Shown piece after piece: positions 19,800-58,017 of a DNA stretch of 64,000 nt. The translations under genes were made by a program, and so were the position numbers. Under the pieces are notes generated by a model. The model was given only the letters and a program-made list of their open reading frames with translations, searched no databases and had not been told where the DNA came from. How positions within the stretch are numbered: the stretch's first letter is position 1; every line of letters begins with the position of its first letter. The stretch is from a bacterium UBP2_UBA2255. Its GTDB lineage: Bacteria > Edwardsbacteria > AC1 > EtOH8. The stretch is from contig DDXR01000038.1 in NCBI GenBank assembly GCA_002347565.1, positions 9,909-73,908 of the forward strand. Direction: 5' to 3'.

Positions 19800-20630
19800 C
19801 TACGGCAGGCCCGGCGGGCCGGGGATGTTGGTCGGCCCGCCGCCGCTCGGCGGATCGCCCTTCTTGGTGGCGATGGCGATGGCGGTCGCCGTGCCTGCGG
19901 CCACGGCGACCGCCGAGGCCGCGACCAGCGCCGGGGCCGAGGCGTACCAGGCGGTCGAGGCGGCCGCGCCCAGGCTGCCGACCTTGATGGCCGCGCCGCC
20001 CCACAGCATCATGAACCCGACCTGGGCGGCGGTCATGGCCGACGGCTTCCTGGCCGCGCCGCCCCGCGGGACGGTGGTCATCATCTTTTCGCCCACCAGC
20101 ACCTCGGCGCCCCGCTCGCCGGCGATCGCCACCTCGCCCTTGAGCACGTCGAGCTCGGTGGAATCGCCCTCCACAAAGATGCCGAACACCGTGCCCCGCA
20201 CACCGGCCACAGCCGTCGGCGTGGTCACCGTGAACTTGCTGTCCTTGGACGCCAGCTTGCGGACGCACCCCAGCACCTTGCCGTTCATGGCCCGCATCGA
20301 GGTGACCGCCGCGGCCGGCTTCCGCTGCCGCTCCATCCGGTCAAGCACCAGCAGGCTCTTGTCCTTGAGCTTGACGATGCTGCCGTCATCCAGTGTGATC
20401 TCGGCCTCGGCCTCGGCTTCCGAGGATATCTTGTCGCCGGGATACAGCCGGGACCTCAGCGCCGCCGGGATCCAGTCGTTGGAGCCCCGGCGCTGGATCT
20501 CCACCCTGCCCTTGACGAAGCTGAGCTTGGCCTGGGTCGGCTTGAACTCGGCCAGGGCCGGGCCGGCCTGCGACAGCAGCATCGCGGCCAGCAGCATCAC
20601 GGCGGCCGGCCGGCTGGGGGTCATCTTCAT
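19800..20630 (-). CDS. FecR domain protein (anti-sigma/regulator-like) with signal peptide and C-terminal Ala-rich hydrophobic tail
   Basis: AKLSFVKGRVEIQRRGSNDWIPAALRSRLYPGDKISSEAEAEAEITLDDGSIVKLKDKSLLVL is a FecR-family signature; no ECF sigma gene is adjacent. Confidence 0.6.
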   Translation of the reverse strand: MKMTPSRPAAVMLLAAMLLSQAGPALAEFKPTQAKLSFVKGRVEIQRRGSNDWIPAALRSRLYPGDKISSEAEAEAEITLDDGSIVKLKDKSLLVLDRMERQRKPAAAVTSMRAMNGKVLGCVRKLASKDSKFTVTTPTAVAGVRGTVFGIFVEGDSTELDVLKGEVAIAGERGAEVLVGEKMMTTVPRGGAARKPSAMTAAQVGFMMLWGGAAIKVGSLGAAASTAWYASAPALVAASAVAVAAGTATAIAIATKKGDPPSGGGPTNIPGPPGLP

Positions 20631-20692
20631 GGTCCACCTCGCGTCTGCGTGTCGGGTCGTGGGTCCGTTCTTGGTCGTCATGGCGGCGCCTC

Positions 20693-23600
20693 CTATCTCA
20701 CCCGGACCAGCTTCTGGGTGCGGGCCTGATCATCGAACTCCAGCCGGACGAAGTACAGGCCGGCCGCGGCCGCCATCCGGCCGTTGTCGGTCCCGTCCCA
20801 GCGCGCGGCATAGTACCCCGCCTCCTGGCGCCCCTCGGCCAGGGTCCGCACCAGCTGGCCGGCCACATTGTAGACCTTCAGGCCGACCCTTCCGGTGCGC
20901 GGCAGCTGATAGCTGATGACCGCGCTGCCGGCGCAGGGATTGGGCGAGACCCGTTCCAGGCCGAAGGCCAGCGGCCTGAGGTCCAGGCTGCCGATCGGCC
21001 GGTCGCTGCAGATCACCGCGAACTCGCGCGATCCAGTCAGGGTGACCGCGACCGGTCCGGAGATCTCGGTGGCCGTGCCCAGCTTGCGGTCGACCAGGTA
21101 CGCGCGCTGGCCGGCGGCCAGGGCGCCGCTGGGCTCGAGCCGGATGGTCGCCCGGGCCTCGGGATCGGACTGCCGCACGACCAGCGGCCACTCCAGGTGC
21201 GCGGCCGGCGGCCGGAAATCGTAGTGGTAGGCCGCGCAGGGCCCCTGACCCCACTCGGGGTGCGGGATCTCGGCCGAGACGGCGTCCGACACCAGCGGCG
21301 GCTTCTCGGCATCCAGCCGGTCGTAGCCTGCGGCGGCCTGGGGAGAGACGCCCATCACCAGCCCGCGGTCCGCTCCGGCGTTGGACTCGACGTCGATCCG
21401 CACCTGCCACAGCTGATCAGCCGCTGGCGGCGATCCCACCCCCGGCTGCGCCTTGGCCGCCAAGAAACGCAGGTAGCAGCTTCCCACCGCGTATACCGCG
21501 TAGCCGCCCCAGGGCTGGATCTGCGAGCTCTCGTTGAACGGCGTCAGCGTGTCCCAAACGCCGTTGTTGTAGAGGTCGGGGCTGTTGTCGGTGTACGTCC
21601 ACACCCGCTGGCGCAGCATGGTGTTGTTGACGGCGCCGCTGTTGTCGTCGAACCGGTACGACGGTCCGGTGTCGCGGCTGACCTCGAGCCCGCCCAGCTG
21701 CAGCGCCGACAGGTAGGGATCCCCGAACAGGTTCCAGCCTGGCTCCATGGCCAGCACCGTCTGGGGATTGGTGTTCGGGGTGCAGCTGACGCTGAGCGTG
21801 GCGGTGTCGACCGTCGCCAGCCAGTAGCCGCGGCCGTTATGGACGGCCGGACGCTCGACATACCGGGCCTGCTGGGCACTGTAGCCGAACATCCGCCAGC
21901 TGGCGCTGCCGTATGAGCCCAGCGAAGGTCCGAGCGCCCCCACCGCGGTCGACTCGGCCGGGATGGCCGGGATCGACATCAGCTGGTAGCGGCGTCCCGG
22001 CCAAAGGGTCGTGACCGCCTGCGGGCTGGCCGTCGTGAATATGGCACCGGCGACCCCCGCCAGCGGGTTCCCGGAACTGTCGCGGGCGCCGGTGACGGTG
22101 AACGAGTACTCGGTCGCCGGGGCGAACCGGGCGTGGGACAGCGTCAGGTAGGTGCCGGCCGCGTTCCAGCTGCGGGACCATCCGGACACCGCCGGGCTGC
22201 AGACGAAGGTGACGCTGGTGTCCGTCACGCCCTTGGAGAACCCGATCACCACGTCCTGCGTCAGTCCGACGCCGGTGTCGCCGTTGGCGGGCGAGAGGGA
22301 TACGACCGCGGGTGCGCCGCTGTCGAAGGGCGCCCATATCGCAAATGAATCGCGGCCCAGCGTGAAGTCGAAGGAGTCCGCGAAGGCGCCGGCGTGGCCG
22401 AGCACGATCGCTCCGCCGTCGGCGGCGGCGCCGGGGTTGCGCTGCGCGACGGCCGGGCCGGACCAGCCCGGCAGGGCTCCGCGCCGGTAGCGGCCGGCGG
22501 CCATGGCCGCCTCGTGCGCCGCTTCGGTGAAGCCGGGAGGGTTGAAGTCGGCCGGGGTATAGGACAACCGGAGATCGAACCCGCCCAGCGCGATGCCGGT
22601 GGAGGCGAACGTCCAATGCTTGCGCAGGCAGGCCGCGGCGTTGGACACCATGGGATGGGGCTGGCCGCTGACGCCGGCGCTGACGTAGCCCGGTGCGCTG
22701 GGGCTGAATGGCTGCAGCTGGACCGGCGAGTAGCCGGCGGCCACGGTGCCAAGGTCGTAGGCCACCAGGGTGTCGCTGGTCCGGATGTACCGCCGCAGGG
22801 TGCCGTCGATATATCCGCCGGCCCGGGTGACAGAACCCGTACTGTCGACGGTCAGCGTGCGGCCGCCGGTGACCAACGCGCCCTGGGCCAGGGACAGGTT
22901 CCCGGCGACCGTCCGGTCGGCGTGCAGCGTCAGCGGCCCGCCGGTGCTGACCGAGACGTTGCGGGGCCCGTCGCTGACCGGGAACTCGCCTTCGCCGGTG
23001 ATGCCGGCGCCGGCCAGCTCATAGACCAGGCTGGCCGCCGGCCGGTACTGCAGCCAGTTGCTGTTGACCGCCCCGCTCCGCCGGACGCAGGCGCCCCTGA
23101 TCGGCAGCGGGGCGCCCAGGTTGACGCCGGCAGTGCGATCCAGCACCAGGGTGTCGAGGCCGGAGACCGTTGCCGGGATCAGGATGGGCGCGGGATCGTT
23201 GCCGGCCACGGCCAGCCGCGATGTGCTGTCCGCCAGCAGGTCGCCGCCGAAGTAGCCGATCTGCCCCAGCAGCGCCAGGCGGCGGGCGCCGACCCGCAGG
23301 GCTCCGGCGTTCAGCTTCAGCGTATCCCGCACCGCAAGGTTCCGCGTCAGGATGACGTTGTCACCGGAGCTCTCGACCACCAGCTGTCGCACCGTGTCCG
23401 GGAAGCCGGGGCCGGTCGGATACGGGCCGGTCGACAGCGAATAGAAGAAGTAGTCGGCGTCCTGGCTGTACTGCCGGGCGCCTCCGACCCGCACCGGTCC
23501 CAGGTCCTGGCCGGGCGGATGCAGTCCCTCGACGTCGGTCATCCCCAGCGCGGCGCCAGGCAGCAGCTGGAACCAGCCCAGGCTGTTCTGCCCGACGTTG

Positions 23601-25642
23601 CTCCATTGCTCGATCACCAGGAAGGCGCCGGGATCGACCCGGTAGTTGACGTGGCCGGTCAACATCTCGCCGCTGGCGGAGTAGCGCTGCATGGCGGCAC
23701 CGCAGAAGACGATGGTGGTCGAGTCCGGCCCGCCGCCGGCGATTCCGGCCACAAGGTGATAGTAATCGCCCCGCAGGAAGAGCGTGGAGATGCCGGGGCT
23801 GGACGTGTCCGTCAGGTGGAGCCAGGCGGGATCGTAGACGGTGAAGCTTCCGTTGACCGTGACCGAGCGCATCCCGCCGCCGCCCAGGACGACTTCGTTG
23901 CCGCTCCCCTGGAGCAGGAGATCGCCGTTGATGGTCAGATCCGGCACCGCCGGGCTGGTCAGGAACAGCCGGCTTCCCCCCGTCGACATCACCTCGAGCC
24001 CGCGCAGGGCGAATGCCGGCCCGCCGGGTAGAACGATGTCGCCGGACTGGTCGGGGCAGTACCAGCGGATTTCGCCGAAGGACTGGTTCATCCCCGCGGG
24101 AGCCAGGTTCTGGACATCCGCAATGTAGAGCGTGGAGAAGGGGCTCCAGTCTGCCGTCGGGATCGCGCCGCCGTTGACGGCATGGGTGTACTGGCTGTAG
24201 GCGTCGAACACCAGCGTCGCGCCCGGCGACTGGGTGAAGCTCCCGCCGGAGAACTGGTAGACGCCGCTGACGAACAGATCGTCTCCCAGGCCGTCGGCGA
24301 TCGTCAGGTCGGATCCCAGCTGCGCCAGCGTGCCCTCGACGCGCAGCTGGTCGATCGTGATGGCCGGGCCGCCGATGTCAAGGATGATGGCATGGCCGGC
24401 CTGGATGGTGACGATGCTGTCGCCGACGCCCGATGGGCAGAGGCTGTCCGGGTTGCCCCAGGTCAGGCCGCCGTTGTCCGAGTACTCCCACGAGGAGGGC
24501 GCCAGCCACTGCCCGCTCGCCGTCGCGCTGCGCCAAATGCGGCCTGGCACCTTGCCGATCACCGGCACCCAATCCAGGCCGCTGGCCGCCACGTAGACGT
24601 CGCCGCCGTTGTCCACCTTCAGGTCCACCGGGCGGGCATAGGCGGCACCCAGGTAAACGCTGGCCGCCAGCAGCGGGCTGGCGCCCCGGGGGTCGACGAT
24701 CCGGACATAGCCGTTGTTGCAGTCGGCGCAGTAGATCAGCGAGTCGGACGGGTTGTAGACGATGGCGGCGATCGAGTCGCCCACGGCCACCGAGTCGGCG
24801 TTCCCCAGCTCGTCGATGGCGTACAACGAGCGGCTGCTGGCCCCGTTGCAGGCGACGAACATCTTGTTATTGAGCGGGCACAGCGCGAACCCGGCCGGGT
24901 TATCACCGACGATGGGGCTGGCCAGCAGCATGTTGCTGGCGGTGTTGATGATCGCCACGCGGTCGACCAGGGAGAGGGCCGCGTACAGGCGGCTGATTGC
25001 CGGGTTCGCCCCCATCCGCTTGTTGCCGGAGGCCAGGCCCGAGATCTCGAGGGCCGCGACCTTGGCGTTGGTCGCGCCGCTGAACACGCCCAGCGAGTCG
25101 CCGCTGTACCAGGGGATGTAGACGCTGTTGGTCGGCTGGTAGTACAGCATCGGGCCGGCGAAGCCGTTGATGGCGGCGTTGTAGGTGTAGCCCGCGGAGT
25201 TGTAGACGTGGGTCTGCCCCGAGAAGTCGTCGAACAGGTAGATCTTGCCGTTGTCCGGGTTGTACTCCACCGCCAGCCCGCCCTGGAACCCGCCCACGGT
25301 CGTGTCCTCGGTGTTGGCAGCGCAGTCGATGGCGCACAGCTCGTCATTGCCTTTCATGTAAAGCAGATTGGCGGCAGCGTTGTACACCATCGGGCCGGTC
25401 ATGAACGAACCAGGCAGCTGCCCCAGCGACGAATCGTTGGCGCAATTCACCGCCAGCACCATGTTGTAAGCGTTGGCGGCGCAGTACATCCGGTTGCTGG
25501 CCGGGCTGAAGCCGAGATTCAGCAGCTGCGGTCCGGTGGCGCCCACGATGATCTGCTTCTTGACGCCATAACTGGCTGCCGACAACAACGTGGCGGGAAT
25601 GAGCAAACAAACCGCCATGATGCCGATCGTCCGATTTCTCAT
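20693..25642 (-). CDS. giant (1649 aa) T9SS-secreted surface protein: N-terminal YVTN/NHL-type beta-propeller repeats, beta-helix-like region, Ig-like (SbsA/Big_5-like) domain, C-terminal Por sorting domain
   Basis: Signal peptide MAVCLLIPATLLSAASYG. Repeated NP-x-x-x-LY/VYV propeller blades (YNPSDSLIYCADCNNGYVRIVD and similar). Ig-like VVSLSPANGDTGV...VTFVCSPA. T9SS CTD GLKVYNVAGQLVRTL...GLYFVRLEFDDQARTQKLVRVR. Confidence 0.7.
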   Translation of the reverse strand: MRNRTIGIMAVCLLIPATLLSAASYGVKKQIIVGATGPQLLNLGFSPASNRMYCAANAYNMVLAVNCANDSSLGQLPGSFMTGPMVYNAAANLLYMKGNDELCAIDCAANTEDTTVGGFQGGLAVEYNPDNGKIYLFDDFSGQTHVYNSAGYTYNAAINGFAGPMLYYQPTNSVYIPWYSGDSLGVFSGATNAKVAALEISGLASGNKRMGANPAISRLYAALSLVDRVAIINTASNMLLASPIVGDNPAGFALCPLNNKMFVACNGASSRSLYAIDELGNADSVAVGDSIAAIVYNPSDSLIYCADCNNGYVRIVDPRGASPLLAASVYLGAAYARPVDLKVDNGGDVYVAASGLDWVPVIGKVPGRIWRSATASGQWLAPSSWEYSDNGGLTWGNPDSLCPSGVGDSIVTIQAGHAIILDIGGPAITIDQLRVEGTLAQLGSDLTIADGLGDDLFVSGVYQFSGGSFTQSPGATLVFDAYSQYTHAVNGGAIPTADWSPFSTLYIADVQNLAPAGMNQSFGEIRWYCPDQSGDIVLPGGPAFALRGLEVMSTGGSRLFLTSPAVPDLTINGDLLLQGSGNEVVLGGGGMRSVTVNGSFTVYDPAWLHLTDTSSPGISTLFLRGDYYHLVAGIAGGGPDSTTIVFCGAAMQRYSASGEMLTGHVNYRVDPGAFLVIEQWSNVGQNSLGWFQLLPGAALGMTDVEGLHPPGQDLGPVRVGGARQYSQDADYFFYSLSTGPYPTGPGFPDTVRQLVVESSGDNVILTRNLAVRDTLKLNAGALRVGARRLALLGQIGYFGGDLLADSTSRLAVAGNDPAPILIPATVSGLDTLVLDRTAGVNLGAPLPIRGACVRRSGAVNSNWLQYRPAASLVYELAGAGITGEGEFPVSDGPRNVSVSTGGPLTLHADRTVAGNLSLAQGALVTGGRTLTVDSTGSVTRAGGYIDGTLRRYIRTSDTLVAYDLGTVAAGYSPVQLQPFSPSAPGYVSAGVSGQPHPMVSNAAACLRKHWTFASTGIALGGFDLRLSYTPADFNPPGFTEAAHEAAMAAGRYRRGALPGWSGPAVAQRNPGAAADGGAIVLGHAGAFADSFDFTLGRDSFAIWAPFDSGAPAVVSLSPANGDTGVGLTQDVVIGFSKGVTDTSVTFVCSPAVSGWSRSWNAAGTYLTLSHARFAPATEYSFTVTGARDSSGNPLAGVAGAIFTTASPQAVTTLWPGRRYQLMSIPAIPAESTAVGALGPSLGSYGSASWRMFGYSAQQARYVERPAVHNGRGYWLATVDTATLSVSCTPNTNPQTVLAMEPGWNLFGDPYLSALQLGGLEVSRDTGPSYRFDDNSGAVNNTMLRQRVWTYTDNSPDLYNNGVWDTLTPFNESSQIQPWGGYAVYAVGSCYLRFLAAKAQPGVGSPPAADQLWQVRIDVESNAGADRGLVMGVSPQAAAGYDRLDAEKPPLVSDAVSAEIPHPEWGQGPCAAYHYDFRPPAAHLEWPLVVRQSDPEARATIRLEPSGALAAGQRAYLVDRKLGTATEISGPVAVTLTGSREFAVICSDRPIGSLDLRPLAFGLERVSPNPCAGSAVISYQLPRTGRVGLKVYNVAGQLVRTLAEGRQEAGYYAARWDGTDNGRMAAAAGLYFVRLEFDDQARTQKLVRVR

Positions 25643-25824: not shown

Positions 25825-26250
25825 TCAGTCTGTCTCCACTTCAATATCGATCTCATCGATTTCCAAAGGATTATTCGGCAATGGAACAGTGATGGCGTCT
25901 TGCATATCGAACAACCGGGAAGCTTGTTGTTTTTTCCTCGCTCGCCTGGTGATTGGCATGGCCCCCGCGCTGGCGGCTTCGTTCTCCGGGGCCCGCTTCC
26001 CGCTGGCGGTCCTCTGCCGGAGCAGCGCCGCGGGGTTCAGCGAGATGCCGCTCTGCGACAGGCGCTGGTCCAGGCCGGTGGCGAAATTGCCGCCCTCGTC
26101 CAGCGCGGCCATCAGCTCGGCCAACGCCTCGTCTGACAGATTCAGCCCCAGCGTTCCGACGGTGCCCTCCAGGTCGGATTCCAGCCGGCGGCGGAACTCG
26201 TCGTCCGCGAGCGCGCGGTCGAGGATCAGCTGGACGTCTTTATCCGTCAT
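25825..26250 (-). CDS. Nif11/NHLP-like leader-domain protein (leader ends in GG) with an 85-aa Cys-free acidic C-terminal region
   Basis: MTDKDVQLILDRALADDEFRRRLESDLEGTVGTLGLNLSDEALAELMAALDEGG resembles Nif11/nitrile-hydratase-leader-peptide type RiPP leaders, including the terminal GG. GGAGGAG RBS 7 nt upstream. Assignment by pattern only. Confidence 0.35.
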   Translation of the reverse strand: MTDKDVQLILDRALADDEFRRRLESDLEGTVGTLGLNLSDEALAELMAALDEGGNFATGLDQRLSQSGISLNPAALLRQRTASGKRAPENEAASAGAMPITRRARKKQQASRLFDMQDAITVPLPNNPLEIDEIDIEVETD

Positions 26251-26333
26251 GGCTGAATCTCCTCCCCGCCAAAAACGCTACGTACGCTAAACCGTTTTCG
26301 CGCAGTTCGCGTCCTTCGCGGGGATACGGTTGA

Positions 26334-26546
26334 TCAGTCCAGCTCCTCCAGCTCCACCGGCTCGTTCTTGGGATGGCAGACGCCGCAGAACACCGCGTCC
26401 GCCGTGGCGATGCCCTTGAGCTTCTGGTCCCTCGTCCGGTAGACCGTGATCAGGTTGGGCAGCTTGCGGGCGTGCTCCTTGCACACCGCCCGGCCGCAGA
26501 AGCTGCAGACGGCGTTGGCCGGCCGTTCGCAATGCCAGCATTCCAT
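26334..26546 (-). CDS. small zinc-ribbon protein (DUF2180-like; CxxC-CxxC-CxxH-CxxCH)
   Basis: MECWHCERPANAVCSFCGRAVCKEHAR...FCGVCHP carries four Cys/His pairs. Confidence 0.5.
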   Translation of the reverse strand: MECWHCERPANAVCSFCGRAVCKEHARKLPNLITVYRTRDQKLKGIATADAVFCGVCHPKNEPVELEELD

Positions 26547-26638
26547 GTGGTTCTCTCCTGTCGTGGTATGTGGCGATTTCCAGACGATGGAACGGGAACA
26601 GCGCCAGCGCTGCCGCTACACGCCGGAACCCACAGTCA

Positions 26639-28429
26639 TTATACCTGCAGCAGCTCATCCCGGCGCGTCTGGTAACGGATCCTGGGGGTCGCGGCGAACA
26701 GCCCGGCATACAATCCCGCTGCACGCTGCCGCTGGTCTTTCGACTTGGTGATCTGGAACATTTCATACGCGATATCGGCGATATTTTCCGGTCGCTGGTG
26801 CCGCTGCGAGAGCTTTTTCAGTTGCGCCACTGCGGCGCCGGCATCGCACCGCGCCTTGAGCCGAGCGTCCAGCAAGCCGCAGCGCAACTGCATCTCGATC
26901 CGGCCCATTCCATCAGCGATGGCCAAGGCTTCGGTGTTGAGGGCGCGGGCCTGATCGCAGCGGCCCAGTCTGAAGCAGAGGTCGGCGCTGTCATGCAAGG
27001 CGTCGGCCAACAGGTGCTGGAAGCCGATCTCCCGGCTGCCGGCGATTGCCCGATCAAAGTGCCGTTGCGCCACCGCGGGATCGCCCGTTTCCCGGGACAG
27101 CCTGCCCAGGCAATTCTCGATCGTCGCGGTCATGACCGGATCGCGCAGCCGCTCCGCGGCGGCCGCGACCCGCTGATAGATCTCGCGGGCCGCACCATAT
27201 TCGCCCGTGTTGTAATGATAGTTCCCCAGCATGCCCTCGATCGTTGCCATGCCCCGTTCGTCCCCCAGCGACCGGAAGGTCGCCAACGCTTCGTCCAGCA
27301 GAGCCTTTGCCTGATGGTAGCGGCCCAGTTCCAGATCGATGGTGCCCAGGTTTCCCGTGGCGTTGGCCGCGGTATAGCCGTCCCCATATTCTTTCGCGAT
27401 CTCCGCCGACTCGCCGGCCAAGGCCGTCGCCTGCTCGAACCGCTCCTGAAAGATCAAGACATTGCTTTTATTGACCAGGGTGATGCCCGTATACAGCGGG
27501 TGGACCGACCGGGCGACCGCGAGCCCCTGTTCGCAGAATGCGAGTGCTCCGTCCGCATCGCCCCGGTAGAGGGTCGCCACGCTGTTGCTGTTGAGTGCGC
27601 TGATCTGGAGCAGGCGATCGCCGGTGCGGAGCCCCACCTCCAGCGCCCTGCTGCCGCGCACCACCGCTGCGGCGAACCGTCCCTCGACGAACTCGATGTT
27701 GGCCAGCATCAGGCAGGTCTGGCCCTCCAGTATCGGGCTGTTGACGGTCCGGTTTTCTTCCAGTATCTCCTGGCACAGCCGCCGTGCCTGTGCGTAGCGC
27801 GAACGGAAAAAATGCGCGTTGACCTGCCCCAACTTGGCATTGAGACGGGTATCCCGTTTGCCCAGGCCGTCGAACAGCTCGATGGATCGGAGATAGGCCT
27901 CGTCCGCGCCCTCGTATTCCTTGAGCTGAATGCGGGTGTTCGCCGAATTGAGCAGCGCCTTGCCGATCCCTTCCAAGTCCCCGCATTCCTCCGCCACCAT
28001 GCGCTGCTGCTGGTAGTAGTAGAGCGCTTGGTCGAACGCCCGGGCATTAAAGCTGACGATGCCCAGGTTATTGAGCGCCCGCCACACGCATTCCTTGGCG
28101 TCCAGCTCGTGCGCCAATGCCAGGGCCTCGGTGAGCAGCGCAACGCCCTTGGCCGGGTCTCCAACGACGCCAGTGCAATACCCCGACCGCATCTTGAATT
28201 TGGCGGTTTCCAGCCCCGCCGGAGCCGTGCTCAGCCACGCCAGGGCATCGTCGTAGATCGCGGCTGCCTCATCGAACCTGTTGCCGCCTTCCAGCAGGTA
28301 GCCTTTTTCATAGAGGATGCCGGTCGGCAGGAACGCCACGCCCGCGGCTGAGGCCTTCGACACCCACAGCCTTCTCAGCGCGAAAGCCTTCCTCGGGCAG
28401 GGGGCGGCCGACTGCGGCGCAACGGGCAC
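26639..28429 (-). CDS. TPR repeat protein (about 12 TPR-like repeats)
   Basis: Repeated A-x-x-x-Y/L-x-x-A-L motifs throughout; 6-nt gap to the upstream membrane protease gene. Confidence 0.6.
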   Translation of the reverse strand: MPVAPQSAAPCPRKAFALRRLWVSKASAAGVAFLPTGILYEKGYLLEGGNRFDEAAAIYDDALAWLSTAPAGLETAKFKMRSGYCTGVVGDPAKGVALLTEALALAHELDAKECVWRALNNLGIVSFNARAFDQALYYYQQQRMVAEECGDLEGIGKALLNSANTRIQLKEYEGADEAYLRSIELFDGLGKRDTRLNAKLGQVNAHFFRSRYAQARRLCQEILEENRTVNSPILEGQTCLMLANIEFVEGRFAAAVVRGSRALEVGLRTGDRLLQISALNSNSVATLYRGDADGALAFCEQGLAVARSVHPLYTGITLVNKSNVLIFQERFEQATALAGESAEIAKEYGDGYTAANATGNLGTIDLELGRYHQAKALLDEALATFRSLGDERGMATIEGMLGNYHYNTGEYGAAREIYQRVAAAAERLRDPVMTATIENCLGRLSRETGDPAVAQRHFDRAIAGSREIGFQHLLADALHDSADLCFRLGRCDQARALNTEALAIADGMGRIEMQLRCGLLDARLKARCDAGAAVAQLKKLSQRHQRPENIADIAYEMFQITKSKDQRQRAAGLYAGLFAATPRIRYQTRRDELLQV

Positions 28430-28435
28430 GGCGGT

Positions 28436-31400
28436 TCACTCCGCGTTGATCTTGTACCGGGTGTCCTTCATCCGCCGGCTGGAGGCCTGCTCCAGGCTCT
28501 TGGAGAAATACAGCTGCTCGCCCAGCAGCTCCATGAAGTCCCCCTGCATCAGGCGGAGCACCAGGCAGTCGCTCCGCGCCGTCACGCCGGCGGTGCGGGG
28601 CACGTCCAGCAGCAGGGCGATCTCGCCGAAATACTCGCCCGGCCCCAGCTCGGCCACCCTGCTTTCCTGCCCGTCCTTCGCCACAAGGATGTCGACCCGG
28701 CCCTGCTTGATGATGTAGAAGCTGTCGCCGGGGTCGCCCTGCGAGAAGATGCGCTGCCCGGCCTGGTAGCGTTCGGGGATCAGCCGCGATGCCACCATCG
28801 CCATCTGTCCCGGCGCGAACTCGGCGAACAGCGGCAGCTTGGCCAGAAACCCCCGGTTCTCGATCAGCCGGTCGATGCGCGAGGCCAGATCGATCTTCTG
28901 CGACAGCAGCATCGCGAAGTCGGCCCGGTTCAGGGTCAGCAGCGAGCAGTCGGCCACGGCCTTGACCGTGGCGGTGCGCGGCACGTTCTTGACCAGCGCG
29001 ATCTCGCCGAAGTAGTCACCCTGGGACAGCGTGGCCGCCAGGTGCTCGACGCCGTCGGGCATCCGGATCCAGACCTCGACTCGGCCGGACTTGATCAGGT
29101 AGAAGGTGTCGCCCTGCTCCCCCTGGCGGATGATGGTCTCGCCGGCCCGGCGCCGCTCCTCCTTGAGGCGGGAGGACAGGGCCTGTTTTTCCGGTTCGGC
29201 CAGCTCCCAGAATTTCGCCACGCCCTCGATCACGTCCTGTGCGGCCCGGCGCTCCCGCCCCAGGCGGGACAGCGCCAGGCCGGGCGCCCAGCTGGCGCCC
29301 GGCATCAAGTACTGCTGCGCGATCTCCCGCTCCTCCCAGTACAGGCTCTCGTAGGCGGCCCTGAACGCGTTGCCGGCAAAGTAGTGCCCTCCCTCGGCGC
29401 CCAGGTAGGCGTGCATGGCGTCCAGCAGACCACGGAAGGCGGCCGCCCGCTCCACGATCCCCGCGCTCCGCTCGAAGCGCTCCTCGCTGCGGTCGCCGTA
29501 CAGCCGGATCGGCCATTCCCGCGCTATCAGGATCAAGTTCAGCCGGTCGTCCATGGCCCGGGCCGCGGCGTCGCCGAAGAAAGCGGTGAAGTAGGCCCGG
29601 GCCGTCTTGTAAATCCTGACCGCGGCCTGGCGCATCCGCCGCCGTTCTGAGGCGGCCGGCTCGTAGGCCGACGCCCCGGGCGACCACGAGGTGCTCTTGA
29701 TCACCAGGTACAGCCACAGCATGGCCGTCAGCTCCAGCAGCGCCGCTGCGGCGCCCCACACCCGGGACCCGGGATCGATGACGCACAGGCCCCAGGCGGC
29801 TCCGCCCAGCAGGAACAGCACCCAGAAGTACTGCAGGCTCGATCCGCGGTTGTTCCAGACCAGCGACAGCAGCATCAGGAAGTTGGCCGCCGCCAGGAGC
29901 AGGGCCAGGTTTTGGTAGGTCGCCAGATGGGCGGTCAGGCCGATCACCGCCAGCGAGCCGAACCACAGCAGGCCCCACAGCAGGCGCTGCCACGAGCGCC
30001 AGCGGCGCAGGCTGGTGAACGAGAACTGGCTGTAGCCGGCCAGGAACGCCGCCGCCGAGCCGGCCAGCAGGGGGTAGACGCGCGCCGGACCGGGGAACAG
30101 CCGCAGTCCGGCTGCGCACAGCATGGCCGCAAGCAGGCTGGCCAATGTCAGCGACAGGTGCGAGCCGCGGTAGTAGCGGTTGACCCGCATGAACAGGGCA
30201 ATCCCGGCCGTCGCGGCCAGGGCGGCGACCATCCAGTATGCCCATCCGCGGGCGGCGGCTGCCGGCCACGGCGCCGCCAATGCCAGCACGGTGAGCGCAA
30301 TACCGGCGGCCTGCGGCCGGCGGTCCACGAACCGCAGCGCCGCCTGCCAGCCCGCAGCCAGCGCCGCGGCGATCCGTCGGCGGGCCGTCGCGGCCGAGGC
30401 GACCGCTGCCGCCGCCAGGGCCATCGGCAGCGCCGCCATGACCCCGGGCGGCAACGCCTGCGCCAGGCGGCGCAGCGCCGCCAGGGCCTGCTCACGGTAC
30501 AACAGAAAGGCGATGCCCAAGGCCAGTGCCGACCAGGCGAACGCCGCCAGCCCGAACCAGGCGTAGACGCGTTCCTCGCCCGACAGCGTCTGGCCGCGCC
30601 GCAGGCGGGCCCACAATTCGCGGCGCACAAACCTGGTGGCCTTTTCGCGCAAGCCGGGCATGTCCAGCCAGTCGACCAGGACGTAGTACCCGTCCAACGG
30701 CAGCAGCGGGTTGACGTTCAGGAACACCGACAGGTAGGACAGCGCTGCGAACTTGTAGAGCAGGGGGCTGAGGAACGGCAGGGGCGACCACCACACCACC
30801 AGCGATGCTGCGCCGGCCAGGAAGAACTGGGTGTAGGGCCCGACCATGGTGACCAGGATCCGCTGGCGGCGGGGCAGCAGCCAGGTATCGGTGGTGTCGA
30901 CGTAGAATGCGGGGAAACCGAGGCGGAAAATGGTGCCGCCGCTGTTGACCGACCGGCCGAACCGCTTGCAGGCCAGCGCGTGCGACAGTTCGTGGGTGAT
31001 CACCGCCAGATAGTTCAACAGAACCAGGATCAGCAGGCCCCACAGGTAGGAGCCGGACGATTTCAGGACCGAGTAGTGTCCCGACCGCATCACCACGGCG
31101 AAGGCCGCCGCGCCGCCCAGGGCCAGCAGGGCGGTGACCGCGATCACGGCCGGCGAGAAGAACAGGGCAAAGCCGTTCCGGTAGAGGGTTCCCGCCAGTG
31201 CGTCGAAACCGGGGATCGGCCACTGCCGCTGGGGCAGGCGGCGAATGAAGTCCGCCGCCCGCGCCGCCGGCCGCGCCAGGGCCAGCTTGCGCGCCAGCCG
31301 GCGGTACAGTCCGACCGGTCGCCGCGTCAGGAAACCGCCGGCGGACAGCTGCTGCACCAGCGATCCCACCCGGGAGAACGCCAGCGCGCCGTAGCGGCGA

Positions 31401-31663
31401 AAATACTCCACCAGCGCCTGCTGCACGGTGCGGCTGCCGTCGAACAGCGAAAACAGGAAACGGTCGTTGTCGCCCAGCTTGATGTATCCGGCGCCGCCCG
31501 GGGCTTTCAGCACGTGGTAGGGCCTGCCGGCGGCGTCCTCGAACCGCGCCTCCTCGAAACCGGGCCTGACCTGGGGACGGGCCCGGGAGAAGTCGAGTTT
31601 CTCCCCCAGCAGTTCCCACACCGGGCGCCGCCCGGCGCCGCTGTCGCCGGTAGCTCCGTTCAC
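28436..31663 (-). CDS. polytopic membrane protein: PqqD/RRE-like N-terminal domain, M50 (site-2 protease) HExxH...LDG core, additional multi-TM region, tandem C-terminal cyclic-nucleotide-binding domains
   Basis: YIKLGDNDRFLFSLFDGSRTVQQALVEY is PqqD-like; ITHELSHALACKRFG is HExxH; NVNPLLPLDGYYVL is the M50 LDG motif. Two cNMP-binding modules (GEQGDTFYLIKSGRVEV...GDYFGEIAL and GDPGDSFYIIKQGRVDI...GEYFGEIAL). The GTG start at 31663 overlaps the nadD stop (GTGA). Confidence 0.6.
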   Translation of the reverse strand: MNGATGDSGAGRRPVWELLGEKLDFSRARPQVRPGFEEARFEDAAGRPYHVLKAPGGAGYIKLGDNDRFLFSLFDGSRTVQQALVEYFRRYGALAFSRVGSLVQQLSAGGFLTRRPVGLYRRLARKLALARPAARAADFIRRLPQRQWPIPGFDALAGTLYRNGFALFFSPAVIAVTALLALGGAAAFAVVMRSGHYSVLKSSGSYLWGLLILVLLNYLAVITHELSHALACKRFGRSVNSGGTIFRLGFPAFYVDTTDTWLLPRRQRILVTMVGPYTQFFLAGAASLVVWWSPLPFLSPLLYKFAALSYLSVFLNVNPLLPLDGYYVLVDWLDMPGLREKATRFVRRELWARLRRGQTLSGEERVYAWFGLAAFAWSALALGIAFLLYREQALAALRRLAQALPPGVMAALPMALAAAAVASAATARRRIAAALAAGWQAALRFVDRRPQAAGIALTVLALAAPWPAAAARGWAYWMVAALAATAGIALFMRVNRYYRGSHLSLTLASLLAAMLCAAGLRLFPGPARVYPLLAGSAAAFLAGYSQFSFTSLRRWRSWQRLLWGLLWFGSLAVIGLTAHLATYQNLALLLAAANFLMLLSLVWNNRGSSLQYFWVLFLLGGAAWGLCVIDPGSRVWGAAAALLELTAMLWLYLVIKSTSWSPGASAYEPAASERRRMRQAAVRIYKTARAYFTAFFGDAAARAMDDRLNLILIAREWPIRLYGDRSEERFERSAGIVERAAAFRGLLDAMHAYLGAEGGHYFAGNAFRAAYESLYWEEREIAQQYLMPGASWAPGLALSRLGRERRAAQDVIEGVAKFWELAEPEKQALSSRLKEERRRAGETIIRQGEQGDTFYLIKSGRVEVWIRMPDGVEHLAATLSQGDYFGEIALVKNVPRTATVKAVADCSLLTLNRADFAMLLSQKIDLASRIDRLIENRGFLAKLPLFAEFAPGQMAMVASRLIPERYQAGQRIFSQGDPGDSFYIIKQGRVDILVAKDGQESRVAELGPGEYFGEIALLLDVPRTAGVTARSDCLVLRLMQGDFMELLGEQLYFSKSLEQASSRRMKDTRYKINAE

Positions 31664-32298
31664 CTTCTGTATAATCCGTGCTGCATGATGTAGCGTTCGA
31701 CGGCCGGCGGGACCAAGTGGCGGATCTCCCGTCCCCGCCCGACCCGCCGCCGGATGTCGCTGGCGCTGATCTCGATGGCGGGCACCGGGACCAACCGCAG
31801 GCGCCGCCGCCACCGCGGATGGATCCACTCAGGCTGGTAGCCCGGCCGGGACAGCGCGCAGACCGCGGCCAGCCGGAACAACCGCGCCGGGTCCCGCCAG
31901 GTGCCCAACAGCGCAGCCTGATCGGCCCCGATCAGAAGATAGAGCCGCGGCCGCCGATCGTCCTGGCGCAGCCGCTGCAGCGTTTCTGCGGTGTAGGAGA
32001 CGCAGCGGGCATCGACCTCGATCCGGGACACGCGGAACAGCGGATCCCCCCGCACCGCCAGCGCCGCCATCCGGATCCGGTCGGCAGCCGGCGCCAGGCG
32101 CCGCCGGCATTTATGCGGCGGCCGGCCGGCCGGCACCAGCAGCACCAGGTCCAGTCCCAATCGCTCCGCCGCCTCCCGGGCGGCGATCAGGTGGCCGACA
32201 TGGATGGGATCGAACGTGCCGCCGAAGACGCCTATCCGTCGGCGCCGCGGCGGTGCCACTTGGCCGTCAGGCTGCCGCCAAATCCCCATGGCAGCCAT
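31660..32298 (-). CDS. nadD: nicotinate-nucleotide adenylyltransferase
   Basis: GVFGGTFDPIHVGHL (HxGH), ISASDIRRRV and overall length match NadD. Confidence 0.85.
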   Translation of the reverse strand: MAAMGIWRQPDGQVAPPRRRRIGVFGGTFDPIHVGHLIAAREAAERLGLDLVLLVPAGRPPHKCRRRLAPAADRIRMAALAVRGDPLFRVSRIEVDARCVSYTAETLQRLRQDDRRPRLYLLIGADQAALLGTWRDPARLFRLAAVCALSRPGYQPEWIHPRWRRRLRLVPVPAIEISASDIRRRVGRGREIRHLVPPAVERYIMQHGLYRR

Positions 32299-47720: not shown

Positions 47721-48865
47721 ACGGCCATCAGCACCTTCTCGACCTGTGCCACCATGACGGACAGCCGGAAACTGCCGCGAACATGTTCCCGGGCTTTTTC
47801 CCGGCGTTCCTGTTTCTCCTGCTGCGTCAGCCCTATGGCGCTCCGGATCGCGCCGGCGAAGGCCTGCGCTGTCGGCTCGGCCACGAACCCGTTGTCCCCC
47901 ACCACCTCGGGCAGCGCGCCGCGGTCGGAGACGACCGGGATCGCGCCGCAGGCCATGGCCTCGGCCGCGGCCAGGCCGAAGGCCTCCAGGCACAGCGAAG
48001 GGACCAGGACGATCTCCGCCGTGCGCATCCTCGCCCAGACGTCCCGCCGCAGCAGGGCCCCGGCGTACGTCACCTGCTTGCCCAGTTTTTCGCGGCGGAT
48101 GAACGTCACCAGCTGGCCCTGGTAGCGGGCGGAGCGCCCGGTGCCGATGATCTCCAGCGGCAGGACCAGCCCCTGGTCGCGCAGCAGGGCCAGCGCCTCC
48201 AGCGCGACATGCGTCCCCTTGTGCCGCGAGACCGCCCCGACGAACAGCAGCTTGCGCTCCCGCTGTGCCGGGACGGCGCCGTCAAGAATTTCATCAGGCA
48301 GTCCGTTGTAGACCACCTGCAGCCGGTCCGGGGGGAATCCGTGCCCCGCCAGCGGCCGGGCGATGGCCTGTGAGACGGCGATCATACGCGCACGTTCCAG
48401 GGCGGGTTCGGTGTGGGACAGCCGCTGGACCAGCGACGGCGAATGGCGGTGATGCTTCCAGTAATGGCCGTAGTAATGGTTGTGGCAATGGACCGCGGTG
48501 CGGACCCCCATGTCGAGGGCCGCGGCCAGCGGGGACAGGGTCGTCCATTCCAGGTTGTGGACGTAGACCACGTCGGGCCGGTGCTTGCGCACGGCCTGCT
48601 GCACGATGCGATAGTTGCGGCGCGCCACTCCCATCCACCGCAACTTGGCCAGCAGGGTCCGCATCTGGCGGCGTTGCTCCACGCGCGGGTTCGAGGACAT
48701 CAGCGGCTCGACGCGGTACCGTTCCTCGTACTTCGCGGTCCCGGCCGTCAGCACGTCCACGGAGTGCCCCATCCGGGCCAGGCCGGTGAAGATGTCGTGG
48801 CACAGCAGCTCGGCGCCGCCCGTGTCGCGCTGGCGCATGAAGTTCTGGATGGCGAGGATTTTCAT
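47717..48865 (-). CDS. glycosyltransferase family 1 (GT4)
   Basis: LVPSLCLEAFGLAAAEAMACGAIPVVSDRGALPE; start at MKILAIQ (48865). Confidence 0.82.
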   Translation of the reverse strand: MKILAIQNFMRQRDTGGAELLCHDIFTGLARMGHSVDVLTAGTAKYEERYRVEPLMSSNPRVEQRRQMRTLLAKLRWMGVARRNYRIVQQAVRKHRPDVVYVHNLEWTTLSPLAAALDMGVRTAVHCHNHYYGHYWKHHRHSPSLVQRLSHTEPALERARMIAVSQAIARPLAGHGFPPDRLQVVYNGLPDEILDGAVPAQRERKLLFVGAVSRHKGTHVALEALALLRDQGLVLPLEIIGTGRSARYQGQLVTFIRREKLGKQVTYAGALLRRDVWARMRTAEIVLVPSLCLEAFGLAAAEAMACGAIPVVSDRGALPEVVGDNGFVAEPTAQAFAGAIRSAIGLTQQEKQERREKAREHVRGSFRLSVMVAQVEKVLMAV

Positions 48866-48887
48866 GAGATGTACGGCAGTTCGGACA

Positions 48888-49421
48888 TCAGATCCTTCGC
48901 CCGATTTTCTTCGCTGGCACACCACCAACAATAACATAGGGTTCTACATCCCTTGTCACAACGGCACCAGCACCGACAACTGCGCCATCCCCAATATTCA
49001 CGCCAGCAAGAATGATCACACCTGCGCCGATCCAAACATCATTCCCTATCTTGACGGGCTTATTGATCAGGGGCTGCTGCAAGATCATTTTTGTGCTTCT
49101 CTTGATGCCATGCTCATTCGTAAAAACCATCAACCCTGGGCCGATCATCACGTCGTGGCCTATTTCTATTTTTTCATCGGCGTTCAAGATCGCATTCAAA
49201 CCGATGCTTGAGTTATCGCCGATAAAAATGTTCCAGTAGTAGTTCAATTGGGCGCCTGGCTGTATGTTCACATTTCTCCCCATCTTCCCGACAAAATAGC
49301 GCAGAAAAGCGACCCGAGCTCTGGAACCAAAAGATTTGGCATCACGGGGTGCCGGTAAATCCTTCAGGAAAAGTGCGTAGAATAGCATGATCGCCTTTTC
49401 CAGATTATACTTGAGGCTCAT
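48888..49421 (-). CDS. hexapeptide-repeat sugar O-acetyltransferase (LbH family; WbbJ/MAT-like)
   Basis: IGDNSSIG...[10 protein letters not shown]...[31 protein letters not shown] hexapeptide repeats; ~47% GC, lower than the flanks. Confidence 0.8.
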
Positions 49422-50590
49422 TTCGCAACGTACCTTTCGATGATGTCGCATAGTTCCTCCACTCTCGCACCCCAGCTCCAACCAGACACCTGCCCGGTAA
49501 TGCGGGCCTGTATTGCTGCCCGATCGACCGGTGTCAGACATGCGTCGATGTACCGCGAAAAGACGGCTCGATCCTGCGATACCATAACATGTTCCTTCAA
49601 TGAATCATCCACTGGTACTGTTGAAACCACCATTTTCCCGGAAGCTTTATATTCAAGCAGTTTCAGTGGAAATCTGGAGCGCACAAATTCCTTATATCGG
49701 CCATCACATATCCATGGTATCAAACAGACAGCGAACGGCTTCAAGTAGGCTGGCAATGAGGTCCATGGCTTTGCCCCAAGGTAATGCATGTTTGTATTGC
49801 CATCAATCAGAAGCTTCAAACGCTCTCGACAGTCGTCCGTAACCGGTCCGATAAACACAAAACTCCTCCCCGCGTTTTGCGAGACTACGTATTCTAGTAA
49901 ATTGTAATCCAAGCCGGCATCGATCATGCCAACATAACCGATAATGGGGGGTGATATTCGCGAGATATCCTCTGGCACAGATAGCGGTTGTTGATTCTGC
50001 AAGTAAAAATGTTCGTCAACACCATGCTTAAACAACACGGCATTGGTGTTCATCGATTTGCATTTATCAAACAATGCCTCGGTAATAGCCAATGGTACGG
50101 TTACATTCGTGATCATTGCCTTTTCCCTGTTCTCCATCACTGAACGGAATTGACCGGAGTAGATTTCGGGGAAATTATCCGAGCAATGATAGACCGTGCA
50201 GGCAGCATCGGGGAAGGCGTCCAGCAAAAACGTATTCCAGGGGTTGCCCAGGAACAGTATCAGCTTGCTCGGGTCATACCGGCCCAGGGCGTGTTTGATC
50301 TGTGCGACAAAATACTTCGGATCGGCCGTGTTCATGACGAAATCGAACTTGTTCTTCCACGGCAGTTCCGAGGGCGACAGCACGGTCAGGCTTTCGTTCC
50401 CGGGCCGCCAGGCGCGCCCGGCCAGCGCCGCCAGCCCGTATTCCCCGACCTGCGCGTCAAGCGGCCGCGGGGGGTCGACAAAAATGACCCGGTTCTTTTT
50501 GGCCAGCCGGGACATGATGTGGTGCTTGCTGTAGCGGTTGCGGTTCCAGGGGATATTGGAGTCGCAAACTATGGTGTATCCCTCGATCAT
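49418..50590 (-). CDS. glycosyltransferase-like protein (GT1-related fold, weakly supported)
   Basis: 390-aa soluble protein in the glycan locus whose stop overlaps the acetyltransferase ATG; lower GC. Fold assignment is tentative. Confidence 0.4.
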
Positions 50591-54234: not shown

Positions 54235-54252
54235 CTCAGATAACTGGGCCTA

Positions 54253-57595: not shown

Positions 57596-57600
57596 TACTT

Positions 57601-57657
57601 CCGTTTGCACGTTGGAGCGTTGAGACGTTATCACGTTCGAACGCGTTGACGTTATTG
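57601..57657. repeat. tandem array of six ACGTT-core units with 8-nt period, abutting the 3' end of the four-helix-bundle gene
   Basis: gcACGTTggagCGTTgagACGTTatcACGTTcgaACGCGTTgACGTTatt; unit starts at 57609, 57617, 57625, 57633, 57641 and 57649. Confidence 0.7.
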
Positions 57658-58017
57658 GTTTTTAAGGTACGTTATCAATTTGCTGATCTGGCTGCTGCAC
57701 TTTTCGGCCTTGTCGAACAGGACCGCGAAATCGTCGCGGCTGATGTACTCCTGGTCGAGCACGGCATACAACTGGGACCGGAACTCTCCCGAGGAGGCCT
57801 TGGCGATGCCGAGATAGCGGATGAACCCCGGCTTCGTCTGGCTCTCGAAACCCTCGGCGATGTTCGACATGATCGAGACCGCGGAACGGCAGATCTGGTC
57901 GCGCAGTCCAAAATCACGCTTGAACGCCTTGCTGCCGGAGATCGCATACGCCGCCCTGGTCAGTTCCCGCGCCGTCTTCCAGGCTTCGATGTCCTCGAAC
58001 CGCTTGAAGGTGCCCAT
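57652..58017 (-). CDS. four-helix-bundle protein (23S rRNA intervening-sequence protein family)
   Basis: MGTFKRFEDIEAWKTARELTRAAYAISG...DQICRSAVSIMSNIAEGF...YLGIAKASSGEFRSQLYAV is characteristic of this family; it sits between wzm and wzt. Confidence 0.8.
   Translation of the reverse strand: MGTFKRFEDIEAWKTARELTRAAYAISGSKAFKRDFGLRDQICRSAVSIMSNIAEGFESQTKPGFIRYLGIAKASSGEFRSQLYAVLDQEYISRDDFAVLFDKAEKCSSQISKLITYLKNQ

Follow-up and report, generated by a model that had tools for sequence, protein, structure and literature searches.

A predicted membrane protease with RRE, site-2 protease and tandem cyclic-nucleotide-binding domains, and its zinc-ribbon and NHLP-clan neighbours in Edwardsbacteria and other phyla

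We analysed a window of 64,000 nucleotides (nt) from the bacterium UBP2_UBA2255 (Edwardsbacteria; contig DDXR01000038.1), in which four co-oriented open reading frames (ORFs) on the minus strand, at 25825-31663, lie between nadD on one side and a giant Big_5/FlgD_ig gene on the other. Read from the nadD side, these are g1 (28436-31663, minus strand; GTG start), which encodes a multi-pass membrane protein of 1075 amino acids (aa); g2 (26639-28429, minus strand; start uncertain), a 596-aa TPR protein; g3 (26334-26546, minus strand), a 70-aa zinc ribbon; and g4 (25825-26250, minus strand), a 141-aa NHLP-clan protein of the Os1348 family. The preliminary description of this DNA took the four genes as one unit. 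Their co-orientation between nadD and the giant gene is as described, but the TPR gene lies outside the core; the idea that the protease, NHLP-like and zinc-ribbon genes go together is borne out by their joint presence in other genomes.

Genes and proteins of the locus

The sequence and the predicted fold give the same domain order for g1 (orthologs 1061-1080 aa): a RiPP (peptide made by the ribosome and modified after translation) recognition element (RRE), a site-2 protease (S2P) core, an extra block of transmembrane (TM) helices, a helical linker, and two cyclic-nucleotide-binding (CNB) domains. The preliminary description had proposed this unusual order, and sequence, profiles and an AlphaFold2 (AF2) model all bear it out. 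The full-length AF2 model has a mean pLDDT of 78; Foldseek searches with it returned CNB matches only, and the N-terminal part was therefore modelled separately (AlphaFold, pLDDT 86).

The RRE (residues ~30-110, nt 31334-31576, minus strand) is predicted to fold as a PqqD-like winged helix, with three strands followed by three helices that together span residues 37-108 in the models. The S2P (M50) core (residues ~171-355, nt 30599-31153, minus strand) shows the S2P fold, including a membrane-reentrant hairpin in the model, and both S2P signatures: HELSH (residues 224-228, nt 30980-30994, minus strand), the zinc-binding HExxH, sits inside a helix spanning residues 206-234, and NVNPLLPLDG (residues 316-325, minus strand; LDG at nt 30689-30697) is the second motif, NxxPxxxLDG, which carries the third zinc ligand (Asp). 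Residues H224, E225 and H228 of the first motif and N316, P319, D324 and G325 of the second are invariant in 29 homologs, and a profile built from five g1 homologs reaches the structure of the M. jannaschii S2P (MjS2P) at 2e-7 with both motifs aligned. Against Pfam, g1 scores 21.5 bits with Peptidase_M50 (PF02163; cutoff 27.2) and 16.4 bits with PqqD (PF05402; cutoff 23.4; E 0.012), and DUF3267 is likewise below its cutoff. Because the PqqD and Peptidase_M50 scores are sub-threshold, the assignment of the RRE and S2P domains, both named in the preliminary description, rests on fold and profile evidence; sequence comparison places the g1 family as a divergent branch of the S2Ps.

Downstream of the protease core lies the extra TM block of ~10 helices (residues ~362-657, nt 29693-30580, minus strand), delimited by hydropathy, model helices and the length classes of the homologs. 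It is followed by a cytosolic linker (residues ~673-830, nt 29174-29647, minus strand), mostly helical in the model and strongly conserved in the homolog alignment, for which neither Pfam nor NCBIfam gave a match. The two CNB domains that had been recognized from the start (residues ~831-1050, to ~1040 in the models; nt 28514-29173, minus strand) are strong matches: cNMP_binding (PF00027) matches two stretches with E 1.7e-52 (175.8 bits; cutoff 27.5); the phosphate-binding cassettes are intact, with FGEIALVKNVPRTA at 885-898, FGEIALLLDVPRTA at 1012-1025 and FGEIAL...PRTA in both; and Foldseek matches the pair to the tandem CNB domains of PKA/PKG regulatory regions (E 1e-17). No Pfam or NCBIfam model spans the whole of g1. 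The nearest NCBIfam entries are the daptide intramembrane metalloprotease NF041824 (E 1.6e-39; 136 bits, far under the equivalog cutoff of 300), the YydH/LiaK maturation protease (3e-14) and, for the CNB domains, TIGR03896 (1.4e-19; 70.7 bits, cutoff 161), and databases list the family under generic names such as 'cyclic nucleotide-binding domain-containing protein'.

The product of g3 contains 7 Cys and 3 His in 70 aa, and its family follows the consensus MxCWHC..A..CRFCGRAVC..H...V.DA..CG.C.P.PEP...P.LD, the last residues of which are the C-terminus. It is a strongly conserved Cys/His zinc ribbon, as first described, but the label 'DUF2180-like' does not hold: DUF2180 (PF09947) scores 15.2 bits against a cutoff of 22.2 and is sub-threshold for 11 of 21 family members as well. 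C5HCH and B-box fare no better, C5HCH being sub-threshold in all 21 members tested; no curated Pfam or NCBIfam family was reached, and no relative of solved structure was found. The protein is 93-94% identical in the related loci L004 and L005, as against 72-76% for g1 and 57-62% for g4, and at synonymous sites g3 likewise diverges less (dS 0.15-0.19, where the same pairs of genomes give 0.53-0.57 for g1 and 0.76-0.83 for g4; L004 12692-12904, L005 7158-7370). The first ~100 nt of the g3 ORF are near-identical in three genomes, with two single-base differences, and both flanking spacers are unalignable. An RNA-level cause of this synonymous-site conservation was rejected (folding z-score -0.06, no Rfam match).

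The g4 protein belongs, with borderline but real support from sequence, to the NHLP clan. Its residues 4-65 (nt 26056-26241, minus strand) match positions 1-63 of NF038399 (Os1348 family NHLP clan protein) at 41.1 bits, for a cutoff of 40; the L088 ortholog scores 46.2 bits and Chloroflexota neighbours 63-78 bits; and the g4 family profile matches the Os1348 crystal structure (6LK7) at 2e-4, with nitrile hydratase alpha chains ranking next. Pfam Frankia_peptide matches below its cutoff (3.7e-6). Of the 'Nif11/NHLP' assignment made earlier, the NHLP half is retained through NF038399, but the Nif11 leader model TIGR03798 gave no match in the NCBIfam scan and the NHLP leader model TIGR03793 reaches only 12.1 bits against a cutoff of 50.9.

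Two further claims about g4 are contradicted. The protein had been read as a leader ending in GG; G53-G54 in fact lies inside the domain, near position 51 of 63, the orthologs have DEGH, EEGR, NECR or TEGE there, and conservation in the 13-ortholog alignment runs ~25 residues beyond it, through FATGLDQRLSQSG.SLNPAALLRQK (GLDQRLSQSG..LNPAALLRQK) to about residue 80, so that the GG-leader reading was rejected. The remainder of the protein had been called acidic; residues 66-125 form a variable basic linker (pI 11.6), and only the last 16 residues, NNPLEIDEIDIEVETD (nt 25828-25875, minus strand), are acidic. This end is conserved in orthologs as EPLExDELDIEVETD, with ETD as the last residues. Hydropathy predicts no TM helix in either g3 or g4. 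The C-terminus of g3 (26337-26363), ...NEPVELEELD, belongs to a family that always terminates at PEPxxxPxLD; the C-termini of both proteins are acidic, with Pro at the start of the motif, and a shared recognition signal is conceivable.

The TPR assignment of g2 is confirmed (TPR_12, 8.9e-36). Its identity to the TPR gene in the corresponding slot of L004 is only 26%, and it has only a generic TPR similarity (26% over 239 aa) to the cyclase-AAA-TPR gene of sister genomes described below, of which it is at most a conceivable remnant. It was rejected as a core component: the slot that it occupies is variable, being empty in L005 and filled with other inserts in L088, L010 and L094, and g2 is a lineage-specific insert between g1 and g3.

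Ratios of nonsynonymous to synonymous substitution (dN/dS) against three orthologous loci are 0.29-0.44 for g1, 0.14-0.35 for g3 and 0.26-0.49 for g4; these low values indicate that all three are real protein-coding genes under purifying selection. Upstream, nadD (31660-32298, minus strand) and g1 share a stop/start overlap, GTGA, and bamD lies upstream of nadD. A promoter-like, sigma-70-like site precedes bamD (33116-33088) and a second lies between g4 and the giant gene, which are weak evidence from sequence that bamD-nadD-g1-g4 may form one transcription unit. The giant gene (20693-25642; 1649 aa) lies downstream of g4 and is followed by a gene for a FecR-domain protein (19800-25642 region), as in L004, L005 and L088. 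Among the genes annotated around the locus (~15.5-36 kb) we found no daptide enzymes (decarboxylase, aminotransferase, methyltransferase, DUF-RRE) and no C39 peptidase, ABC transporter or HlyD protein, and a tblastn search of the 64-kb window found no cyclase, FHA, M16 or ECF (extracytoplasmic function) sigma gene. Elsewhere in the window, GC content falls to 0.52-0.57 at 48001-50000 and 54001-58000, compared with 0.64-0.71 in the rest; these segments are possibly foreign or atypical.

Conservation at the nadD locus and across the wider family

Close homologs are annotated as Candidatus Edwardsbacteria or candidate division TA06. In these Edwardsbacteria-like genomes g1, g3 and g4 stay together down to 55% g1 identity and the intervening gene varies: L004 (75% g1 identity) has the order nadD-g1-TPR-g3-g4-giant gene; L005 (72%) is the same with the TPR gene missing; L088 (55%) carries an ORF6N gene and a 78-aa gene in the TPR slot; and L010 has a 187-aa ORF between g1 and g3. 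The g1-g3 spacer is an insertion hot spot: ORF6N-type genes and a ~200-aa gene that resembles, by eye, an IS200/REP-associated tyrosine transposase stand where the window has its TPR gene (L088 9339-9865; L093, L094 and L096).

Synteny of bamD, nadD and g1 is kept in all Edwardsbacteria/TA06-like loci examined. It extends to the sister genomes L001, L002 and L011 (~55% identity), which have neither g3 nor g4 within 8 kb; there g1 is followed (L001 11302-17146, L002 11340-17183) by a PHP-domain gene, two divergently oriented genes for small CNB proteins, a conserved protein of 112-118 aa without a known family, and a class-III cyclase-AAA_16-TPR protein of 1254 aa, which is likely a local source of cyclic nucleotide. 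Conversely, the metagenome contigs L091 and L092 contain the g3-g4-giant gene string with no protease within 5 kb. The string of zinc ribbon, NHLP-like gene and giant Big_5/FlgD_ig gene is conserved in Edwardsbacteria-like contigs (L004, L005, L088, L091-L097), and a functional tie of g3 and g4 to the giant secreted protein is possible.

The family reaches far beyond these genomes. A scan of one genome per species with the RRE-S2P alignment as query gave at least 550 confirmed loci; the best 80 of them come mostly from Chloroflexota and Actinomycetota, along with Edwardsbacteria/UBP2 and Acetothermia, and include cultured Oscillochloris and Actinoplanes. With g1 residues 1-421 as query, phmmer found 448 matches at E≤1e-30 and 5,689 at ≤1e-10 among 1.84 billion representatives, and lengths of 1000-1200 aa account for about half of the top 150. 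Neighbourhoods were analysed by ORF calling, iterated hidden Markov models and clustering at 79 loci with a complete protease ORF, 59 of which have at least 2.5 kb on both sides (the full-flank set).

Of the 59 full-flank loci, 45 (76%) have a zinc ribbon no more than 3 kb from the protease. When all protease loci are counted, 56 of 57 nearby ribbons share the strand of the protease, and the median gap is 111 nt. NHLP-clan genes, in up to four copies, occur within 6 kb at 22 of the 59 (37%), and 20 have both. The g1-g3-g4 trio, or the g1-g3 pair, recurs in Chloroflexota, Actinomycetota, other lineages and one distant contig of unknown taxon. The converse dependence is looser. In a reverse scan of metagenomes with the zinc ribbon as query (80 loci), a protease was found at only 11 of the 33 that have 1.5 kb or more on each side, although a truncated protease gene, of which the CNB part remains, stands at the end of some short contigs; the ribbon was rejected as an exclusive partner of the protease. 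Elsewhere it comes after a large secreted repeat protein or, at 11 loci, after an ABC ATPase and a permease, in some cases with an NHLP-clan gene as well. Nine such loci (L112, L138, L139, L143, L145, L151, L153, L158 and L163) show the order ABC ATPase, ~290-aa multi-pass membrane protein, zinc ribbon; this membrane protein has no NCBIfam family, and an NHLP-clan gene sometimes comes after the ribbon.

Family members fall into three length classes: the longest (~1030-1220 aa) have the extra TM block as well as two CNB domains, those of ~720-830 aa have the two CNB domains and no extra TM block, and those of ~470-620 aa have neither. The CNB-less proteases usually have a zinc ribbon and a tandem-FHA protein encoded upstream, and a separate tandem-FHA partner accompanies 16 of 21 CNB-less forms compared with none of 38 CNB-fused forms. 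The sensors swap, with CNB domains fused to the protease at some loci and a tandem-FHA protein encoded separately at others. M16 peptidases, small CNB proteins, cyclase-AAA-TPR proteins, ParA-like ATPases and ECF sigma factors also recur in the neighbourhood; class-III cyclase-AAA-TPR and small CNB genes are common near the proteases, the sister lineage L001, L002 and L011 included. At four Chloroflexota loci a ParA/MinD-like (CbiA) ATPase gene is found a few genes downstream of the protease/zinc-ribbon pair (L003 13589-14353, L022, L034, L075). No radical-SAM, YcaO, LanM-type, ATP-grasp or similar enzyme appears among the recurrent neighbour clusters, the rarer clusters having been annotated in part, and no daptide-type enzyme genes were found among the neighbours of related loci.

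The NHLP-clan neighbours share their N-terminal domain and differ behind it. Measured from the motif LD(E/Q)R(I/L)S(K/Q), their tails are 3-252 residues long and hypervariable; many are short with an aromatic last residue, and some are simple repeats, such as (ARNT)n/(NTAA)n (L025 3630-3938, L078 8454-8828), Ala/Asn-rich stretches (L028 5186-5902) and (SAEQLSHM)n (L023 4778-5824).

ECF sigma genes stand immediately upstream of an NHLP-clan gene at seven loci, which represent three lineages, and four of the seven encode an NHLP-clan protein with an HxxxCxxC N-terminus of the zinc-binding anti-sigma (ZAS) type. L006 has the order ECF sigma, a 131-aa protein, a 727-aa RRE-S2P-CNB protein and a zinc ribbon, in which the 131-aa protein combines an N-terminal HAAECAAC, the zinc-binding anti-sigma signature, with a C-terminal NF038399 domain (41.9 bits). 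In L033 and L070 the HxxxCxxC protein is a second NHLP gene of the locus, not the sigma-adjacent one, and that of L033 also has a sub-threshold match to an anti-sigma NCBIfam model (2e-5). The NHLP domain of these anti-sigma-like proteins is C-terminal, with only 4-6 residues past LDERISK, which the logic of a leader followed by a core peptide leaves unexplained.

A signalling protease and the alternatives

We propose that the g1 system is a form of second-messenger-gated intramembrane protease signalling, in which cytoplasmic substrates are chosen through recognition of the RRE/NHLP type, a reading that we hold with confidence and doubt in about equal measure. The cytoplasmic N-terminal RRE of g1 would dock the NHLP-clan (Os1348-type) domain of a client, or a segment adjacent to it, the client here being g4; cyclic nucleotide bound to the C-terminal tandem CNB domains would set the activity of g1 or the access of substrate; the S2P would then cleave the docked client, probably near LD(E/Q)R(I/L)S(K/Q); and g3 would act as a dedicated cytoplasmic accessory, whether adaptor, inhibitor, cofactor or second substrate. 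The output would be the regulated cleavage or release of the docked protein, i.e. a signalling step. In other lineages the input may come from a tandem-FHA protein that replaces the fused CNB domains, and at some loci the system may be paired with an ECF sigma factor. Because the sensors swap and because ECF sigma factors and anti-sigma-like NHLP proteins occur as partners, we infer that the family resembles a regulated-proteolysis pathway with borrowed RiPP-style leader/RRE recognition. The preliminary description had likewise suggested a cyclic-nucleotide-gated protease that recognizes g4; this remains the best reading, but the GG-type cleavage site that went with it does not.

Several points weigh against the proposal. 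The link between the RRE and g4 is one that we infer, and g4 itself passes the NF038399 cutoff by little more than one bit. Both g3 and g4 lack a TM helix, whereas classical S2P substrates are transmembrane helices. About 60% of the protease loci have no NHLP-clan gene inside 6 kb, and the g3-type ribbon accompanies the protease at about one third of flanked loci, so that it is a frequent partner and not an exclusive one. The 64-kb window encodes no cyclase. Finally, multi-copy NHLP-clan arrays, hypervariable tails and common M16 peptidases are RiPP-like traits.

These last traits belong to the alternative that survives best, a minimal pathway for a RiPP or secreted peptide: g4 would be the precursor, and g1 would bind its leader through the RRE, remove it and release or export the C-terminal part, as a bacteriocin or pheromone that is unmodified or modified by enzymes encoded elsewhere, with cyclic nucleotide tuning production only. 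The resemblance of g1 to the daptide and YydH/LiaK maturation proteases speaks for it, as do the naming of the NHLP-clan family after Os1348, a putative precursor tied to antibiotic activity (PMC7726476), the tandem NHLP-clan genes, as many as four at one locus, whose N-domains are conserved and whose tails are hypervariable, the M16 peptidases at several loci and the ABC transporter genes that adjoin zinc-ribbon/NHLP pairs in the 11 metagenome loci. The details of the window fit it poorly, however: there is no exporter; the 76-aa tail of g4, a poorly conserved basic linker with a conserved acidic end, is unlike a core peptide; and neither GG nor any other leader-end motif is conserved. Elsewhere, the recurrent neighbours include no conserved modifying enzyme, and some NHLP-clan domains stand at the C-terminus of anti-sigma-like proteins, with only 4-6 residues behind the motif. 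In addition, g1 sits in core-genome synteny, and the order bamD-nadD-g1 favours vertical inheritance over a mobile biosynthetic cluster. The context as a whole favours signalling over the maturation of a peptide natural product, and we regard the precursor pathway as unlikely, if worth keeping in mind.

It is more doubtful still that g1 is an S2P with a housekeeping or quality-control role, specific to its lineage and regulated by cyclic nucleotides, with g3 and g4 as mere syntenic neighbours that belong functionally with the giant surface protein and the FecR-domain gene. Such an arrangement would agree with the protease-free strings of L091 and L092, with the retention of g1 after nadD in L001, L002 and L011 where g3 and g4 are not nearby, and with the promoter-like site that the giant gene has of its own. 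Yet unrelated phyla with wholly different flanking genes also pair g1 with g3, whether g4 is present or not, and ancestry as a syntenic block therefore cannot explain it; the frequencies of the ribbon and of the NHLP-clan gene in the full-flank set suggest enrichment across phyla, and an RRE implies a specific peptide or protein client.

A Pycsar-type anti-phage defence, with g1 as a cyclic-nucleotide-activated membrane effector, is highly improbable: the PADLOC models PycTIR, PycC and Effector do match g1 (E 1e-10 to 3e-23), but only its generic CNB part (residues 809-1072) is covered, the window encodes no cyclase, next to g1 or elsewhere, the locus lies in conserved core synteny and not in a defence island, and the RRE-S2P part has no counterpart in Pycsar.

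To return to the signalling protease, we can sketch a wider version of it, which we put forward tentatively and consider rather less probable than not: a widespread S2P pathway in which the RRE/NHLP-clan pair would select cytoplasmic, non-transmembrane clients, anti-sigma factors among them, with no site-1 protease, and which would be switched by fused cyclic-nucleotide sensors or by phosphothreonine-reading tandem-FHA proteins, with the zinc ribbon as cofactor or inhibitor. RiPP recognition would then have been adopted for signalling, or the reverse.

The preliminary description had called the fusion of RRE, M50 protease and cNMP domains undescribed. RRE-S2P fusions are in fact published for daptides, and for the NHLP-clan family there are a curated model and a crystal structure; it is the tandem cNMP addition, and more generally the combination of RRE-S2P with tandem CNB or FHA sensors, the extra TM block, a zinc ribbon, an NHLP partner and anti-sigma-like fusions, that we did not find in the searchable literature, nor did we find there a paper on Franean1_4349. 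The value of the locus lies more in the family-wide pattern than in the single case. If the proposal is correct, it joins RiPP leader recognition with regulated intramembrane proteolysis, two fields that are usually separate; it provides a direct route by which cyclic nucleotides or Ser/Thr phosphorylation would control small proteins and ECF sigma factors through proteolysis; it concerns phyla, Chloroflexota and Edwardsbacteria/TA06, in which hardly any signalling has been characterised; and it assigns a function to the g1 family, to an unannotated, very strongly conserved family of 70-aa zinc ribbons and to Os1348-family NHLP-clan proteins. For genome mining, it is also a caution that an RRE found together with an NHLP-like ORF is not enough to identify a natural-product cluster.

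Comparison with known systems

Several systems share one or two elements with the g1 locus. The N-terminus of g1 has distant homologs (P0025-P0033, E 1e-21 to 1e-10) among YydH-like proteins annotated as 'putative peptide zinc metalloprotease' (K16922), for which precomputed Pfam domains are PF02163, PF05402 and HlyD-type domains; their C-terminal module is a periplasmic HlyD-like membrane-fusion domain, at the place where g1 has its CNB domains. The NHLP/Nif11 systems with C39-ABC/HlyD export have in common with the present locus an NHLP-clan N-terminal domain and a cNMP-binding protein (TIGR03896); here, TIGR03896 and TIGR03793 both score below cutoff and no GG stands at the end of the domain.

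Os1348 itself, from Pseudomonas sp. Os17, is a putative precursor of 85 aa, encoded beside GNAT, HExxH peptidase and SagB-type genes; the antibiotic phenotype of its loss is modest, neither secretion nor modification was demonstrated, and the adjacent HExxH peptidase appears to control the level of Os1348 (PMC7726476). The likeness to this cluster, OS3, lies in the NF038399 family shared with g4 and in an HExxH peptidase encoded alongside. The differences are as plain: the Os17 peptidase is a soluble gluzincin (TIGR04267), whereas g1 is an S2P; the Os17 cluster has GNAT and SagB-type genes and no CNB protein or zinc ribbon; and Os1348 lacks the long tail that the 141-aa g4 carries.

Among the S2Ps, RseP has periplasmic PDZ domains and requires prior site-1 cleavage of a transmembrane anti-sigma factor (RseA, FecR), whereas the recognisable sensor and docking domains of the g1 system are all cytoplasmic and its candidate clients have no TM helix. 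SpoIVFB, which cleaves the non-transmembrane Pro-sigmaK, is an S2P with a cytosolic nucleotide-binding CBS domain. It senses ATP through CBS and has no RRE, whereas g1 combines tandem CNB domains with an RRE; its partners BofA and SpoIVFA are membrane proteins, in contrast to the soluble zinc ribbon g3; and its sequence similarity to the g1 family is marginal (E 0.24).

The daptide peptidase DapP/MpaP (NF041824) comes closest in domain structure: it is an RRE fused N-terminally to an intramembrane S2P (doi 10.1101/2023.03.08.531785). The 727-aa relative of g1 in L006 aligns with positions 9-377 of the 379 in this model at 1.3e-47. To the shared RRE and S2P core g1 adds ~10 TM helices, a helical linker and two CNB domains; and the daptide precursor is short and ends in Thr, whereas g4 is an NHLP-clan protein ending in Asp. 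By analogy, the daptide peptidase, for the fusion of recognition element and protease, and SpoIVFB, for the gating of an S2P by a cytosolic nucleotide-binding domain and for a client outside the membrane, would be the best precedents for the gated model of g1.

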